Shown piece by piece: positions 2,559 through 28,625 of a stretch of DNA of 28,625 nt (position 1 is the stretch's first letter; the number at the start of each line of letters is the position of its first letter). The DNA is from an uncultured Synergistia bacterium (lineage in GTDB: Bacteria; Vulcanimicrobiota; SpSt-956; JAKJGF01). The notes under the pieces were generated by a model. It saw nothing but the letters and a program-made list of their open reading frames with translations, searched no databases and was not told the origin of the DNA. The stretch spans positions 1 through 28,625 of the forward strand of contig CAYSLJ010000099.1 of NCBI GenBank assembly GCA_964431735.1. Direction: 5' to 3'. Both the position numbers and the translations under genes were made by a program.

Positions 2559-2588
2559 CGTGACGCGTGACGCGTGACGCGTGACGCG
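2559..2588. repeat. Tandem heptamer array (CGTGACG)x4, directly 5' of the Lon-like gene start
   Basis: cgtgacgcgtgacgcgtgacgcgtgacgcg. On the gene's sense strand it reads ...cgtcacgcgtcacgatttttttAAGGAGGttatttaaATG. Confidence 0.9.
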
Positions 2589-2708
2589 AGGTAAAACCTG
2601 AGATGTCAGAGAGAAAACATTGCCGGTTATACTTCCTGACAGATTATATTACAGGCTTCCAGATATAAATTCTTCTAAAATCTATAAATTTCCTACATAA
2701 ATATAAAT

Positions 2709-3113
2709 TTATTTCTTCCCGCCTATGATACGGGAAATTTTTGTTTCCAGAAGAAGGGGAAATTCAGTAAAAAGCTTCTCGTTCAAACAGGCCTGAAACC
2801 ACAAAAGCCCCGGCCTGTAAAGGGGAAAATTCTTTAAAGGCGATAAAAACCTCTTAACGGTACATTGCTGATCAGAATGAAAATTTCTCTTTAAAATCTC
2901 GAAATAAAGCTGATCCTTCTGGGCTGTAAGTATTTTTATCTCTTCTTTATAATCACCTTCAGGAACAACCCATTCCGTAACGATACAGAAAGAAATATTT
3001 GAAGGATATGTTACAGCCTTTATTTTATTAAATATACCGCTCAATACAGGTCTTTCTGACATATCTTTACCTATGGCATCACATAATATAAATGATTTTA
3101 TAAAAGCTTCCAA
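2709..3113 (-). CDS. Hypothetical protein (134 aa), TTG start
   Basis: ORF with AAGGAG Shine-Dalgarno 9 nt upstream of a TTG start. The same heptamer promoter-proximal module precedes it. I recognise no domain. Confidence 0.5.
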   Translation of the reverse strand: MEAFIKSFILCDAIGKDMSERPVLSGIFNKIKAVTYPSNISFCIVTEWVVPEGDYKEEIKILTAQKDQLYFEILKRNFHSDQQCTVKRFLSPLKNFPLYRPGLLWFQACLNEKLFTEFPLLLETKISRIIGGKK

Positions 3114-3132
3114 TATGATTGACTCCTTAAAT

Positions 3133-3162
3133 CGTGACGCGTGACGCGTGACGCGTGACGCG
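3133..3162. repeat. Tandem heptamer array (CGTGACG)x4, near-identical copy of the 2559-2588 array
   Basis: atcgtgacgcgtgacgcgtgacgcgtgacgcgagg is shared between the two loci, flanks included. It lies immediately 5' of the 2709..3113 gene start. Confidence 0.9.
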
Positions 3163-3241
3163 AGGATCGTTTATTATGAACAATATATATATTGATTTAT
3201 TCTATAAATATGAAAAAAATCCTACATAAGAATTATCTTCA

Positions 3242-3304
3242 GTGAGTAGTGAGTAGTGAGTAGTGAGTAGTGAGTAGTGAGTAGTGAGTAGTGAAAAGTG
3301 AATT
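3242..3304. repeat. Tandem heptamer array (GTGAGTA)x7 followed by GTGAAAA/GTGAATT units
   Basis: Perfect 7x7 bp tandem repeat 3242-3290, then degenerate GTGAnnn units. Confidence 0.95.
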
Positions 3305-3317
3305 TTACGCTTTACGT

Positions 3318-3434
3318 GTCACGCGTCACGATTTATAGTATCACGTATTACGCATCACGCATTACGCATCACGCATCATGCATCACGAACCACCCGTCAC
3401 ACGTCACGCGTTACGCGTCACGCGTCACGACTAT
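3318..3434. repeat. Composite heptamer array (TCACGCG / TCACGTA / TTACGCA / TCATGCA units) ending in the conserved module ...CCACCCGTCACACGTCACGCGTTACGCGTCACGCGTCACGACTA
   Basis: About 16 consecutive 7-bp units. The terminal part matches the modules at 13584-13620 (-), 17003-17035, 23345-23381 (-) and 25817-25853. Confidence 0.9.
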
Positions 3435-25880: not shown

Positions 25881-25881
25881 T

Positions 25882-27051
25882 ATGGAACATAAAAAACTCT
25901 ACCTTTATATACATGTACCGTTCTGTAAAAACAAATGTCCCTACTGTGCCTTTTATTCCATAGAAGATCTTGACTTTGTCGAAGTCTATATTAAAACCTT
26001 GACAGATGAGATTAATCTCTATTCTTCTTTGTTTGATTTCAATCATATAGAATCAATCTATATAGGAGGAGGTACTCCTTCACTGCTTCCCCTGAACCAT
26101 TTGGAGAATATTCTGAAATTCTTTTCCATAAATAAAAATACTGAAATTACTATTGAAACAAACCCGGAATCCCTTACACAGAAAAAACTTAAATTCTATA
26201 AAGAATCAGGCATAAACAGATTGAGCGTTGGTATTCAGTCCTGTCTTGACAGAAATCTCTCCGTTCTCGGAAGAAATCACAGAGTCTCTCAGATTTATAA
26301 AATACTTGATTATATCTACAGACTGGACTTTAAAAATATAAATTTCGATTTTATCTATAATATACCGGAGCAGACTCCAGACGATCTGGACAGAGAATTT
26401 GACCTTATAAAAACATATAACCCACAACATCTTTCTTTTTACGGACTCATACTGGAAGAAGATACGGATTTTTTTAATATGTACAACAAAAAGACAGATG
26501 AAGATCTTTACAGAGATATGTATTTAAGGATCTCAGGTAAGCTGACAGAACTGGGATATGAGCACTATGAAATATCAAATTTCTGCAAACCCGGCTATCT
26601 ATGCCGGCACAACTGGTCTTACTGGGATTTCAGCGAATATCTTTCCTTCGGCCCGTCAGGTTCTTCATATATAGACGGCAAAAGATTTAAAAATTCCGAT
26701 TCTCTGGGAGAATATATAAAAAATATAGAAAACAACAAACTAGCCATAGAAGAACCGGAAGACAGGAACAGAGAAGACATACTCCTCGAAAGGATATTCC
26801 TTTCACTGAGAAAAAATTCCGGCCTCGATTTAAAAGAACTCTCAAAAGAATATAAATTTAACCCTGACTTTATAATTGAAAAATTTCATGTTTTTTTACC
26901 GGAAGAACTTTATTATTACAGGGACAACAGCCTTTACCTTACAGCAGAAGGTTTTCTTATGTCAAACACTGTTATTGTTGACCTTTATGAAGAGATTCTT
27001 CTGAATATAAAAGGTGAGCAGCAAGTCACTCAGTATAATCGTGACGCGTGA
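25882..27051 (+). CDS. hemW: Radical SAM family heme chaperone / oxygen-independent coproporphyrinogen-III oxidase-like protein (HemW/HemN family)
   Basis: LYIHVPFCKNKCPYCAF (CxxxCxxC), IYIGGGTPSLL, and an HemN C-terminal-like region. The start is the ATG at 25882; the track ORF start at 25777 only translates the upstream heptamer repeat. lepA-hemW adjacency is a common conserved pair. Confidence 0.85.
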   Translation: MEHKKLYLYIHVPFCKNKCPYCAFYSIEDLDFVEVYIKTLTDEINLYSSLFDFNHIESIYIGGGTPSLLPLNHLENILKFFSINKNTEITIETNPESLTQKKLKFYKESGINRLSVGIQSCLDRNLSVLGRNHRVSQIYKILDYIYRLDFKNINFDFIYNIPEQTPDDLDREFDLIKTYNPQHLSFYGLILEEDTDFFNMYNKKTDEDLYRDMYLRISGKLTELGYEHYEISNFCKPGYLCRHNWSYWDFSEYLSFGPSGSSYIDGKRFKNSDSLGEYIKNIENNKLAIEEPEDRNREDILLERIFLSLRKNSGLDLKELSKEYKFNPDFIIEKFHVFLPEELYYYRDNSLYLTAEGFLMSNTVIVDLYEEILLNIKGEQQVTQYNRDA

Positions 27052-27205
27052 TGCGTGATGCGTGATGCGTGATGCGTGATGCGTGATTGATGCGTGATAC
27101 GTGATCGTGATATGAGAATCGTGATGCATGACGCGTGAAGGGTGATGCGTGATGCATAAACTTCACCCTTCACTTTTCACTTTTCACCACTCACGACTCA
27201 CCAAT
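27040..27205. repeat. Heptamer arrays (GTGATGC x6, then inverted GTGAAGG/GTGAAAA units) between convergent hemW-like and glgC
   Basis: cgtgacgcgtgatgcgtgatgcgtgatgcgtgatgcgtgatgcgtgattgatgcgtgatacgtgat... then cttcacccttcacttttcacttttcaccactcacgactcacc. Confidence 0.95.
27135..27188 (+). terminator. Candidate intrinsic terminator for the hemW-like gene formed by inverted heptamer units
   Basis: gtgaagggtga (27135-27145) pairs with tcacccttcac (27163-27173), an 11-bp stem with a 17-nt loop. It is followed by TTTTCACTTTTCACC. Confidence 0.45.
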
Positions 27206-27213
27206 CACTTACC

Positions 27214-28494
27214 TTAAATTACCGTATTATGAGGTATTACGGCATGTTTCGGTACCACAATAATACCATCTCTTATATAAAAATTCTCTCTGTCACCTTC
27301 GAAAACATTATCTTTATTTATGAGCTTAACATTATGGCCTATGCAAACATTCTTATCTATGATACAGTTATGTAAAATACTCTTCTCTCCTATGCCGAGC
27401 AATTGTTTTGTGTCTCTCGGACCGAATTCATAATAATCTGCTCCCATGATTATGGCATTTTTTATCTCGCAGTCGGGCTCTATAAAACTCCTTATACCTA
27501 TGACACTTCTTTCTATACTGGCTTTAAAGATAATGCAACCGTCAGAGATAATGGAATTTTTTATGACACAATCATGAAATTTAGATGCAGGAAGATATCG
27601 TGAGTTTGTATATACAGGGAAGTCTATATCATACATTTTAAATTTAGCTCTTTCGTCGGTGAGGGCAAGATTTGCATCGAAGAAGGCCTTTATTGTTCCG
27701 ATATCTTCCCAGTAGCCGTTGAAGAAATGACCGTATACTGCTTTATTATCTTTTATACATTTAGGAATTATGTCTTTCCCGAAATCTATTAAATCAGTGT
27801 TATCCAGTATATCAAAAAGCAGATCCCTGTTAAAAATATATATACCCATAGAAGCGAGAAAATCTTTTCCATCGTAACTTCCGAATTTTTCATGGAATAC
27901 TTCTTTCGGTACTCTGAATGGCTCAAATACAGATGGTTCTTTAGGTTTCTCCACAAATCCCGTAACCTTACCTTTATTATTGACCTGCATTATACCGAAT
28001 TCTTTAATAAGCTCTTCAGCGACAGGCTGAACGCCTATAGTCAATTCTGCACCGTTTTCTATATGGGTCTGAAGAAAATCTCTGTAATTCATTTTATAGA
28101 GATGGTCACCGGAAAGAATGAGGATATAACTGCCCTGTCTTGTTTTTATATGGCTGATCTGTTTTCTCACTGCATCTGCTGTGCCCTGAAACCAGTCCAG
28201 ATTTTCAGGTGTCTGTTCTGCTGCAAGTATTTCCAGAAAACCCTTCGAATAACTGTCAAATCTATAGGCTTCATATATGTGTTTGGCAAGGGATGCCATA
28301 TTAAATTGAGTCAGAATAAGAATTTTTCTTATACCTGAATTGATACAGTTTGAAATAGGAATGTCTATGAGTCTGTATTTGCCTCCAAGGGGAACTGCCG
28401 GTTTGGATCTCATTTTTGTAAGAGGAAAAAGTCTCGTCCCTCTTCCGCCTCCGAGTATGACTGTAAGGATCTGATCCGTAGGAATTCTTGCCAT
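27214..28494 (-). CDS. glgC: Glucose-1-phosphate adenylyltransferase
   Basis: ILGGGRGTRLFPLTKMRSKPAVPLGGKYRLIDIPISNCINSGI N-terminal nucleotidyltransferase motif. C-terminal left-handed beta-helix region. 426 aa. Confidence 0.9.
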   Translation of the reverse strand: MARIPTDQILTVILGGGRGTRLFPLTKMRSKPAVPLGGKYRLIDIPISNCINSGIRKILILTQFNMASLAKHIYEAYRFDSYSKGFLEILAAEQTPENLDWFQGTADAVRKQISHIKTRQGSYILILSGDHLYKMNYRDFLQTHIENGAELTIGVQPVAEELIKEFGIMQVNNKGKVTGFVEKPKEPSVFEPFRVPKEVFHEKFGSYDGKDFLASMGIYIFNRDLLFDILDNTDLIDFGKDIIPKCIKDNKAVYGHFFNGYWEDIGTIKAFFDANLALTDERAKFKMYDIDFPVYTNSRYLPASKFHDCVIKNSIISDGCIIFKASIERSVIGIRSFIEPDCEIKNAIIMGADYYEFGPRDTKQLLGIGEKSILHNCIIDKNVCIGHNVKLINKDNVFEGDRENFYIRDGIIVVPKHAVIPHNTVI

Positions 28495-28504
28495 TATACC
28501 ATCG

Positions 28505-28572
28505 CCTTTCTTTATTAGTGAGTAATGAATAGTGAGTAGTATAATATTTCATTCACTATTCACCATTCATTT
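28505..28572. repeat. Inverted heptamer units (GTGAGTA/GTGAATA ... TTCACTATTCACC) in the glgC 5' region
   Basis: tagtgagtaatgaatagtgagtagtataatatttcattcactattcaccattcat. The arms gaatagtga / tcactattc are complementary. A CGTGACG array begins at the window edge (28616-28625). Confidence 0.75.
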
Positions 28573-28625
28573 TAAGGGGTTGTCAAGAAATAACCCAATC
28601 ATATTTACGTCTATATCGTGACGCG

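Follow-up and report, generated by a model that had tools for sequence, protein, structure and literature searches.

What are the tandem seven-base-pair units that fill the spaces between the genes of an uncultured bacterium, and does their arrangement point to a function? The question is raised by a contig of 28,625 nucleotides (CAYSLJ010000099.1, GenBank assembly GCA_964431735.1) from an organism labelled as an uncultured Synergistia bacterium and placed by GTDB in the Vulcanimicrobiota; this whole stretch, referred to here as the window, is an ordinary bacterial chromosome segment of 28.6 kb with about 36% G+C and 19 genes. Bacteria have been known since about 1990 to carry heptanucleotide repeats between their genes, and to our knowledge no function has been established for these repeats. 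We found that nearly all arrays of the window and its relatives belong to one family with a T-N-A-C core, the orientation of which follows the flanking genes, with separate classes at start and at stop codons. Our tentative reading, to which we give a probability of roughly 40%, is that the arrays may be slippage-maintained cis-elements that are read strand-specifically, probably as RNA, by a protein with a 7-nt register. The phenomenon is more regular than was recognised in an earlier account made from the letters of the window (the sequence-only reading), which had overlooked the polarity rule, the common T-N-A-C core, the occurrence in many phyla and the prior record of intergenic heptanucleotide repeats (PMC4679880); what we infer is its function.

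Tandem Repeats Finder returned about 25 period-7 arrays in the window, and a period scan assigned period 7 to 859 of 4505 intergenic bases (19.1%) compared with 47 of 24120 bases called as coding (0.19%), with periods 5, 6 and 8-12 covering close to zero bases in the same scan. All 47 of the nominally coding bases lie at gene edges, partly as a result of mis-set starts (the true starts are the ATG at 17935 for a radical-SAM gene and the ATG at 25882 for a HemN-like gene) and otherwise as a result of arrays furnishing the stop codon. The string TCACN3TCACN3TCAC occurs 39 times in the window versus 0.00 times in 100 dinucleotide shuffles, and TCAC triplets in a 6- or 8-nt register (N2 or N4 spacers) are absent from it. 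Seventeen intergenic regions are 40 nt or longer, of which 14 carry arrays by our own reading of the intergenic list, and the genes that the arrays flank are of every kind, including lepA, glgC, radical-SAM, kinase and helicase genes and housekeeping-type enzymes, with no tie to gene function. The sequence-only reading had reported tandem 7-bp units in almost every intergenic region, an exceptional density of about 25 arrays in 28 kb and a perfect GTGAGTA repeat at 3242-3290; the counts above bear out the first two, and the third was recovered by Tandem Repeats Finder as 7.7 copies at 3241-3294. Its proposed comparison of intergenic with coding DNA likewise came out as a strong intergenic enrichment, the coding share being confined to gene edges. 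A tRNA scan detected no tRNA gene in the window, and a search with Rfam 15 gave no match in it at gathering score.

The arrays are no assembly artefact, as the same account had already considered likely. An independent Logan contig from run SRR10812145, which carries lepA, is 100% identical to the window over 2132 nt (23616-25747), and arrays stand at orthologous places in related metagenome-assembled genomes (MAGs) and JGI metagenome contigs. Both ends of the Logan contig fall inside heptad arrays, which indicates that short-read assemblies break at them.

To place the units in a wider context, we considered a lineage set of 279 kb composed of the window and its relatives. Among its 177 arrays, 139 have a TCAC core, 31 a TTAC-like core and seven neither, so that 170 of 177 follow T-N-A-C, and only six lie inside called open reading frames (ORFs). 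By calculation, TCAC is expected in about 5% of random heptamers in any rotation and on either strand; when the search-selected TCACGCG arrays are left aside, it is still found in 64 of 102. The three positions outside the core take more than 20 forms that are joined by single changes (GCG, GCA, GAC, TAC, TTT, TGG, TGA and others), and since orthologous arrays exchange the spacer in concert yet keep the core, we conclude that the core is constrained. Among the unit variants transitions prevail, numbering 149 compared with about 24 transversions outside the central base, and they include the CpG-decay products CATCACG and TGTCACG. The unit CGTNACG is palindromic save for its centre, yet C6pG7 was changed nine times and the equally mutable C1pG2 58 times, and on the gene-sense strand the central base is C in 268, T in 70, G in 27 and A in 17 units, i.e. 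a pyrimidine in 338 of 382. From this asymmetry and the strand-biased centre it follows that the constrained unit is T-N-A-C-G on one strand rather than a palindrome. The leader element also has defined ends, namely YC(A/T)CG upstream (C at position -2 in 124 of 137) and ATT downstream. The "GTGANNN" units of the sequence-only reading are therefore real as 7-nt units, but they form one family with a TCAC/TTAC core on one strand, and which strand this is follows the flanking genes strictly.

The polarity was apparent in all four kinds of intergenic region of the lineage. On the top strand, the left half favours GTGA-type units (53 vs 10) and the right half TCAC-type units (44 vs 21), with ratios of 13:1 and 11:3 in divergent and 7:1 and 8:1 in convergent regions. 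TCAC points 5' to 3' into the flanking gene at start and end alike; the leader of an mRNA would therefore show (CGUCACG)3-4 some 20 nt ahead of its start codon, and the trailer (GUGAnnn)n from the stop codon onward. Arrays of the CGTCACG class precede co-directional starts 63 times versus 21, with a distance mode of about 20 nt and a copy number of 3-4 in leaders, and arrays with at least three CGTCACG units turn TCAC toward the gene start 26 times and GTGA once. The GTGAGNN/GTGAAAA classes abut a stop codon, with GTGA in gene sense, in 34 of the 51 cases in which a gene was called on that side; 26 of these 34 lie within -16 to +10 nt of the stop and often supply the stop codon itself. Such anchors, the start and the stop codon, are features of the message and not of duplex DNA. 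A Shine-Dalgarno (SD)-like motif is found in 23 of 44 array leaders (52%) and in 78 of 159 other leaders (49%).

Comparison of orthologous sites revealed that arrays persist while their surroundings diverge. The contig JBEHWP010001146, from a MAG to which its submitter gave the label "Vulcanimicrobiota bacterium ER1", is 86.6% identical to window positions 1609-3302, and the MAGs ER1, ER2 and CTOTU7676 (34-41% G+C) have the same unit types as the window, which thus belongs to this lineage. The leader array of the Lon-like gene has four copies in the window and two in ER1, the rest of that intergenic region being unalignable, and the leader array of the DUF6941 gene has four copies in both with one transition. 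Seven GTGAGTA units of the window correspond to four GTGAATC plus three GTGAGTC units in ER1, so that count and core are equal and the spacer has changed in concert. In three genomes, i.e. the window and two metagenome relatives with HemN-like proteins 87% and 79% identical, the order is lepA stop, GTGA-type array, CATCACG-type array and ATG, and the genomes differ in the unit of the array after the lepA stop (GTGAGTA, GTGAAGA or GTGATCA). The glgC stop likewise precedes a GTGA-type array in relatives, with TCACTAT units at this place in locus L112 (compare window 27161-27211). A partial ORF upstream of lepA in L112 has the position and orientation of the window's gene for a major-vault-protein (MVP)-like protein, of which it is presumably an ortholog, and its leader holds 11 copies of TCACTGA in place of four of CGTCACG. 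Copy numbers at orthologous arrays of different species are 4/4, 4/3, 4/4, 2/4 and 3/3/2 (4/4 and 4/3 in ER1/ER2 pairs), and the upstream flanks (70 nt) are 51-66% identical except for two pairs at 94-96%. The copy-number comparison suggested in the sequence-only reading thus yields differences between related genomes (4 vs 2, 4 vs 3), although the number is often conserved at four.

Beyond the lineage, a scan for (CGTCACG)3 with one genome per species gave at least 109 stretches. The genomes and MAGs among the matches listed carry labels of Bacteroidota, Nitrospira, Planctomycetota, Verrucomicrobia, Chloroflexi, Acidobacteria, Streptomyces and others, and their arrays often have adjoining TCAC/TTAC heptads and an ATG shortly downstream. 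Periodic GTGA pairs within 150 nt of a sense array of at least three CGTCACG units lie upstream in 19 cases and downstream in one, in all three G+C groups. Many unrelated heptamers also occur in the other genomes scanned. High-G+C actinomycetes provide individual examples, such as 10.7 copies of CGTCACG in Streptomyces kaempferi (L030, 5451-5525) and three CGTCACG units followed by four of CGTGATG in another (L013, 5870-5925). In a Bacteroidales MAG (L063, 3269-3420), about 17 GTGACGG/CCGTCAC units are followed by CGTCACG units about 50 nt before an ATG, and array length is far greater in some Bacteroidota. A search of viral contigs returned seven matches in 2.9 million, the array standing just before SD-ATG in three of the seven; a phage origin was considered and rejected on this small number, the downstream phage genes having given one weak PHROG match. 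A full-text search of 8 million papers for the array string gave no match.

The genes of the window encode a Lon-like protease, a DUF6941 protein, an HD-domain protein, a DinG-like helicase-nuclease, pilin-like proteins, a Ser/Thr kinase with beta-propeller, a CHASE4 histidine kinase with a sigma-54 response regulator, two radical-SAM enzymes, the MVP-like protein, LepA and GlgC. The arrays between them are as follows, in window coordinates.

2559-2588, minus strand: leader array of 4.3 copies of CGTCACG, flanked by CCTCG (5') and ATT (3'), 20 nt before the SD sequence and ATG of the Lon-like gene (538-2535, minus).
3133-3162, minus strand: leader array of the DUF6941 gene (2709-3113, minus) with 4.3 copies of CGTCACG, the gene start being 16 nt away.
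3241-3301, plus strand: purine-rich GTGA-type arm of 7.7 copies of GTGAGTA, then GTGAAAA units.
3307-3434, plus strand: TCAC-type composite of short GTCACG units, a CATCACG/CATTACG run, the linker GAACCACC (3387-3394) and five CGTCACG/CGTTACG units, stopping 27 nt before the HD-domain gene (3458).
4904-4930, plus strand: 3.9 copies of CGTCACG, then ATTCT, then the ATG of the DinG-like gene (4936).
7329-7346, minus strand: two-unit CGTCACG element (CCCGTCACGCGTCACGAG on the minus strand).
13585-13643, minus strand: composite of three CATCACG units, GAACCACC and GTCACGC, ATTACAC, GTTACGC and GTCACGA units.
13650-13681, no strand assigned: GTTGAGG/GTTGAAA heptads, among the few arrays that lack a TCAC core.
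15134-15156, plus strand: three CCGTCAC/CCGTTAC units within the kinase-regulator operon; in the sense of the CHASE4 gene (minus), GTAACGG/GTGACGG right after its stop.
16887-16914, minus strand: about 3.5 copies of CGTCACG as leader array of the CHASE4 kinase gene (15152-16879, minus), whose start is 4 nt away.
16948-17032, plus strand: three copies of CGTAATGCGTGATG, a 13-nt centre and four CGTCACG/CGTTACG units; the arms are inverted and complementary via G.U pairs on the plus strand, and the element lies upstream of a match to the consensus promoter TTGACA-17-TATAAT (17077-17105).
17803-17860, plus strand: GGGTGAATGGTGAAG (two GTGA-type units), then CGTCACGCGTCACGCATGACG.
17909-17934, plus strand: four TTCACCA/TTCACCC units abutting the true radical-SAM ATG (17935), 95% complementary to 17798-17816.
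19329-19380, plus strand: seven CTCACTA/CTCACGA units; in the sense of the gene at 19381-19992 (minus), GTGAGTC/GTGAGTA directly after its stop.
20659-20806, plus strand: three GTGAGTG/GTGAGTA units, 3.3 copies of GTGAAAA, a 16-nt centre and 4.7 copies of TCACTAT/TCACTTT, the last array ending 2 nt short of the stop codon (20809-20811) that closes the gene for the MVP-like protein (20809-23268, minus).
23349-23376, minus strand: four CGTCACG/CGTTACG units, 80 nt upstream of the start of the MVP-like gene, 94% complementary to 23607-23637.
23607-23639, plus strand: four CGTCACG/CGTTACG units, then ATTCTCAT, at 269 nt from lepA, which lies downstream, as does a promoter-like site (23768-23796).
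25716-25775, plus strand: 4.6 copies of GTGAGTA, then 4.4 of GTGAAAA, beginning 2 nt past the lepA stop codon.
25786-25877, plus strand: four CATTACG/CATCACG units, GAACCACC, four GTCACGC/GTTACGC units, ATTCTTA, then TATCACG, TATCACG and CATTACG, 4 nt before the HemN-like ATG (25882).
27040-27155, plus strand: 17 CGTGATG/CGTGACG units, which the HemN-like ORF enters, its stop being a TGA of the array (27049-27051).
27161-27211, plus strand: TTCACCC, TTCACTT and CTCACGA units; in the sense of glgC (minus), GTGA-type directly after the glgC stop.
28517-28571, plus strand: inverted heptad arms upstream of glgC, AGTGAGT, AATGAAT and AGTGAGT, an 11-nt centre, then ATTCACT, ATTCACC and ATTCATT.
28573-28625, plus strand: dispersed 50-nt module (TTGTCA...TATAT), then the onset of a CGTGACG array cut by the end of the window.

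The array order common to 3242-3434 and 25716-25860 had been described correctly, and two further copies of it, at 13585-13643 and 27040-27211, lie on the minus strand. In three of these composites, CATCACG and CGTCACG arrays are connected by a unique linker of 8 nt, GAACCACC (3387-3394, 13614-13621 on the minus strand and 25813-25820); as a lineage-wide motif it was rejected, being found next to arrays in the genome of the window and not at the related MAG loci.

Several further observations were made at these loci. A second kind of heptad without TCAC core consists of G-rich units (GGGTGTT, GGGTTAT, GTTGAGG) opposite C-rich ones (AACACCC, AAAACCC) in inverted arrays, at L112 1697-1779, L040 7509-7558 and window 13650-13681, and the G-rich arm, with its repeated G3N4 form, could fold as a G-quadruplex. 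Between the arrays and the kinase gene there are two unannotated small ORFs, at 13122-13345 (minus) and 13500-13575 (plus), with a cysteine-rich product of about 72 amino acids preceded by an SD sequence and a peptide of about 25 amino acids. The 50-nt module (aggggTTGTCAagaaataacccaatcatatttacgtctatat), followed by its CGTGACG array, recurs with 98-100% identity at loci L042, L061 and L074 of MAG ER2; it has a perfect TTGACA on the opposite strand, in L074 forms one arm of an inverted pair flanking the array, and looks like a portable promoter cassette. A perfect palindrome of 12-13 bp at 8128-8156 (GAATTTATTACG...CGTAATAAATTC) with T-runs on both sides resembles a bidirectional terminator and belongs to one of the three long intergenic regions that are free of heptad arrays. 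The MVP-like gene (20809-23268, minus) encodes an 819-amino-acid bacterial protein with shoulder and repeat domains of the major vault protein and a Band 7 domain. The DinG-like helicase (4936-7272, plus) has an N-terminal PD-(D/E)XK/Cas4-like nuclease domain and matches the PADLOC type IV-A DinG model with E=2e-122; it adjoins the Lon-like protease, the DUF6941 protein and the HD/dGTPase-like protein (538-4819), no CRISPR array being found in the window, and these genes may constitute a defence island. A general defence link of the genes next to arrays was rejected, the DinG/Cas4-like gene being the sole match and unrelated to the arrays.

Any explanation must cover the strict 7-nt register, the asymmetric core with free spacers, the polarity including that of convergent regions, the classes anchored on start and stop codons, and the persistence at orthologous sites. 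According to the reading that we favour, heptad elements of one family, with a T-N-A-C core and three freer positions, would mark gene borders strand-specifically. In the sense of the mRNA, the leader would present (CGUCACG)3-4, often after CAUCACG/CAUUACG units, and end about 20 nt before the start codon, and the trailer would present (GUGAnnn)n at or overlapping the stop codon. An oligomeric nucleic-acid-binding protein would read one unit per 7 nt, much as HutP reads three XAG motifs at a 7-nt spacing. Its target would most probably be RNA, whether leader, trailer or nascent transcript, and the effect, exerted genome-wide, might be a tuning of translation start, mRNA ends or mRNA stability. 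Replication slippage favouring 7-nt units would generate, resize and homogenise the arrays, of which selection would retain core, orientation and position. We infer that RNA rather than DNA is the molecule read, that a protein of this kind exists and that expression is affected. The protein-binding arrays and structured untranslated regions (UTRs) named in the sequence-only reading remain the leading classes of explanation.

A number of points weigh against this proposal. Some CGTCACG arrays lie upstream of good promoter matches (17005-17032 relative to 17077-17105, and 23607-23639 relative to 23768-23796) and would hence fall outside the leader of that gene, and the proposal presumes that the arrays are transcribed in the manner described. 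Folding gives no array-specific advantage to the sense strand, and -10-like hexamers have neither a fixed position nor a peak relative to the arrays. The array is not a substitute for the SD sequence, given the near-equal SD frequencies in leaders with and without arrays. The adjacency to starts and stops could stem from arrays growing until constrained sequence is met, and the orientation could partly reflect an avoidance of GUG and UGA in leaders. Gene-relative positions outside the lineage, where ORF calling is noisy at mid and high G+C, are no more than suggestive (13 vs 6 and 17 vs 10), and no candidate for a reader protein emerged. Among other ideas, a fixed promoter distance was dropped for want of a -10-like peak, consensus promoter and terminator scans being uninformative; an anti-SD role of the 5' flank (CCTC with GGAGG) was dropped as RNAfold predicts the array's own hairpin (z about -1.5 on both strands, not significant); and Rho utilisation (rut) sites would suit the arrays poorly, the trailer arrays being C-poor, which is the wrong way round.

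A serious rival, if an unlikely one, places the reading at the level of DNA, where a small dimeric protein of the omega-like ribbon-helix-helix or YbaB/EbfC type would occupy one unit per 7 bp and insulate or regulate promoters and gene borders. Precedents exist in omega, which binds 6-10 unspaced ATCAC-core heptads, direct and inverted, at promoters (PMC4627068), ATCAC being contained in CATCACG and TATCACG, and in EbfC, which accepts any n in its GTnAC site, prefers two sites and has high-affinity sites just 5' of promoters (PMC2665219); CGTNACG contains GTnAC with a central base that takes all four values, and the near-universal YbaB would suit the distribution across many phyla. The arrays upstream of strong promoter matches, the inverted arms that flank divergent promoter regions and the strand symmetry of folding are in line with this view. 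Asymmetric constraint and codon anchoring fit it less well: C6G7 of a palindromic unit is far more conserved than C1G2, the centre is strand-biased relative to the gene, arrays at starts and ends differ in class, and trailers are anchored on the stop codon. Moreover, most units other than CGTNACG (GTGAGTA, GTGAAAA, TTCACCA) contain neither GTnAC nor WATCACW, and an omega-like gene did not turn up, though no search was aimed at one. We consider it unlikely that the arrays are selfish or neutral microsatellites, spread from a few founder units and homogenised by slippage that favours 7-nt units and pruned only where copies are harmful (in coding sequence, ribosome-binding sites and leaders with GUG or UGA), in which case intergenic location, closeness to gene borders and orientation bias would all arise with no positive function. 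This rival covers much of the dynamics: heptanucleotides are the commonest long simple repeats in many prokaryotes, with polymerase slippage as the proposed cause (Mrazek 2007, as cited in PMC4679880), copy-number change and concerted spacer change were both observed, variants are mostly transitions including CpG-decay products, unrelated heptamers abound in other scanned genomes, and the arrays extend as far as the stop codon on one side and to some 20 nt short of starts on the other, without any link to gene function. It does not explain the conservation of a 4-nt core in 170 of 177 arrays despite spacer divergence or the recurrence of exactly CGTCACG, with its 19:1 GTGA-upstream layout, in many phyla; nor would it lead one to expect perfect four-copy arrays surviving between species with 51-66% identical flanks or a polarity of 15:2 in convergent regions, in which no leader is involved.

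That GTGA and TCAC arms pair as long imperfect RNA or cruciform stems, serving as terminators, RNase III sites or mRNA stabilisers, appears very unlikely as an account of the arrays at large. Predicted folds have helices of 4-5 bp every 7 nt (z -1.7 to -4.4 in the two array-filled regions tested), complementarity between inverted arms amounts to 83-96%, two-arm regions fold best (-0.29 vs -0.17 kcal/nt) and the hmw 5'-UTR heptamer hairpin of Haemophilus influenzae offers a precedent (PMC12721329). Both arms, however, are present in 19 of 77 array-bearing regions, so that the two-arm hairpin was abandoned as a general rule and the model is limited to this minority; pairing by itself leaves the constant GTGA...TCAC order, which is never reversed, unexplained, and there is no sense-strand (G.U) advantage. 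(CGUCACG)4 alone is predicted to fold to a 10-bp hairpin, yet with z -1.5 this is not significant against shuffles, and a role as strong terminator is excluded for one GTGA-type array by its location inside the kinase-regulator operon. Finally, the sequence-only reading had raised slipped-strand variation of promoter spacing, that is, contingency loci switched by slippage through the length of the leader or the spacing of the promoter. In its favour, related genomes do vary in copy number (4 vs 2, 4 vs 3), and hmw of H. influenzae is phase-variable through heptamer repeats (PMC12721329). Such switching is nevertheless hardly credible as the main role of the arrays, since CGTCACG arrays mostly end about 20 nt before the start codon and GTGA-type arrays mostly begin at the stop, copy number is often identical (four) across species, arrays also trail stop codons, and they stand beside nearly every gene, lepA, glgC and housekeeping-type enzymes included, rather than beside a class of surface, virulence or other contingency genes.

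Compared with other intergenic repeats, the arrays represent an unusually clean case, in which one 4-nt core, a strict gene-relative orientation, separate start and stop classes and orthologous conservation come together with CGTCACG arrays in many phyla. These regularities lead to testable predictions, namely a factor with a 7-nt register, strand specificity, and effects of inversion or of core mutation. A practical consequence is that short-read assemblies break at the arrays and that ORF callers go astray there in setting gene starts and stops.

With respect to known systems, the short tandemly repeated repetitive (STRR) sequences of heterocystous cyanobacteria, for which we take CCCCAGT, TTGGTCA and CAACAGT to be the canonical units, and other long simple repeats share with the present arrays the 7-nt tandem unit, the mostly intergenic location, the many copies per genome and slippage as likely generator. 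The three units are absent among the array consensus units of the window and the lineage, STRR units lack the T-N-A-C core, and neither gene-relative polarity nor start/stop anchoring is described for STRRs in the literature examined. The omega protein of plasmid pSM19035 binds unspaced heptads 5'-(T/A)ATCAC(T/A)-3' with one dimer per heptad (PMC4627068), and its operators resemble our arrays as unspaced 7-bp TCAC-core units in direct or inverted arrays of 6-10 near promoters; they differ in number (three operators on a Firmicute plasmid as opposed to hundreds of chromosomal sites) and in flanking bases, the W positions of CATCACG/TATCACG being C or G and most units having GTCAC, TTCAC or CTCAC, and neither asymmetric constraint nor stop-codon anchoring would be expected of them. 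EbfC/YbaB, a nearly universal protein family, binds the broken palindrome GTnAC with any central base and more tightly on two sites (PMC2665219), and this is the centre of CGTNACG. EbfC sites are single, however, at about one per kb, whereas our non-palindromic classes are without GTnAC and G2 is far less conserved than its partner C6.

Reading of RNA in a 7-nt register exists, as HutP in the hut leader of Bacillus subtilis reads three XAG motifs with 4-nt spacers per protein face (PMC2425495). (GUGAGUA)n has UAG every 7 nt, and arrays of 3-4 units match one oligomer face; yet HutP is the antiterminator of a single operon, and most of our units are without XAG, UAG recurring every 7 nt solely in the GTGAGTA class. 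The (ATCTTTC)n repeat in the hmw1A 5'-UTR of H. influenzae is transcribed in the leader and pairs with a complementary arm into a long hairpin that affects expression (PMC12721329), but it concerns a single pair of phase-variable virulence loci with at least 10 copies and RNase III dependence, in contrast to short, often stable arrays found genome-wide. Repetitive extragenic palindromic (REP) sequences and bacterial interspersed mosaic elements (BIMEs) are dispersed imperfect palindromes of 20-40 nt in extragenic DNA; CCTCG(CGTCACG)4ATT spans about 36 nt, occurs at dispersed sites between fixed end sequences and is predicted to fold into a 10-bp hairpin, but it is built of tandem heptads and located mostly at 5' ends.

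Among the closest known systems are the TAACTGA repeats of marine Beggiatoaceae, Cyanobacteria and some Bacteroidetes, which occur in 2-6 copies in forward orientation just upstream of start codons (MacGregor 2015, PMC4679880) and for which a post-transcriptional regulator (S1, Csp or Csr) was proposed. Both are tandem heptamers at very many loci with no link to gene function and a scattered multi-phylum distribution, and the forward orientation just before starts is seen here as well (63 vs 21, 26 vs 1; 3-4 copies). The present arrays differ in a unit that is mostly CGTCACG or another TCAC-NNN, in a second, complementary class anchored on stops with polarity at both gene ends, in a far greater density (19% of intergenic DNA) and in SD sites, which are rare in TAACTGA regions and as frequent as elsewhere in our array leaders. 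Runs of two or more TAACTGA units were absent from all loci; TCACTGA/TCACTGG arrays with single TAACTGA units are found in the lineage just before SD-ATG. It is conceivable, if distinctly doubtful, that T-N-A-C heptads constitute a widespread gene-border code, in which a widespread protein with a 7-nt register would tell UNAC RNA (entering a gene) from GUNA RNA (leaving it), uniting the CGTCACG arrays of many phyla, the TAACTGA repeats and the present arrays in one post-transcriptional or transcription-coupled system. The regularities described above tie the present arrays to the TAACTGA repeats, and since the TAACTGA unit fits the T-N-A-C core and TCACTGA and TAACTGA units stand before SD-ATG in the lineage, we regard the arrays as a new and much denser variant of the TAACTGA-type element.

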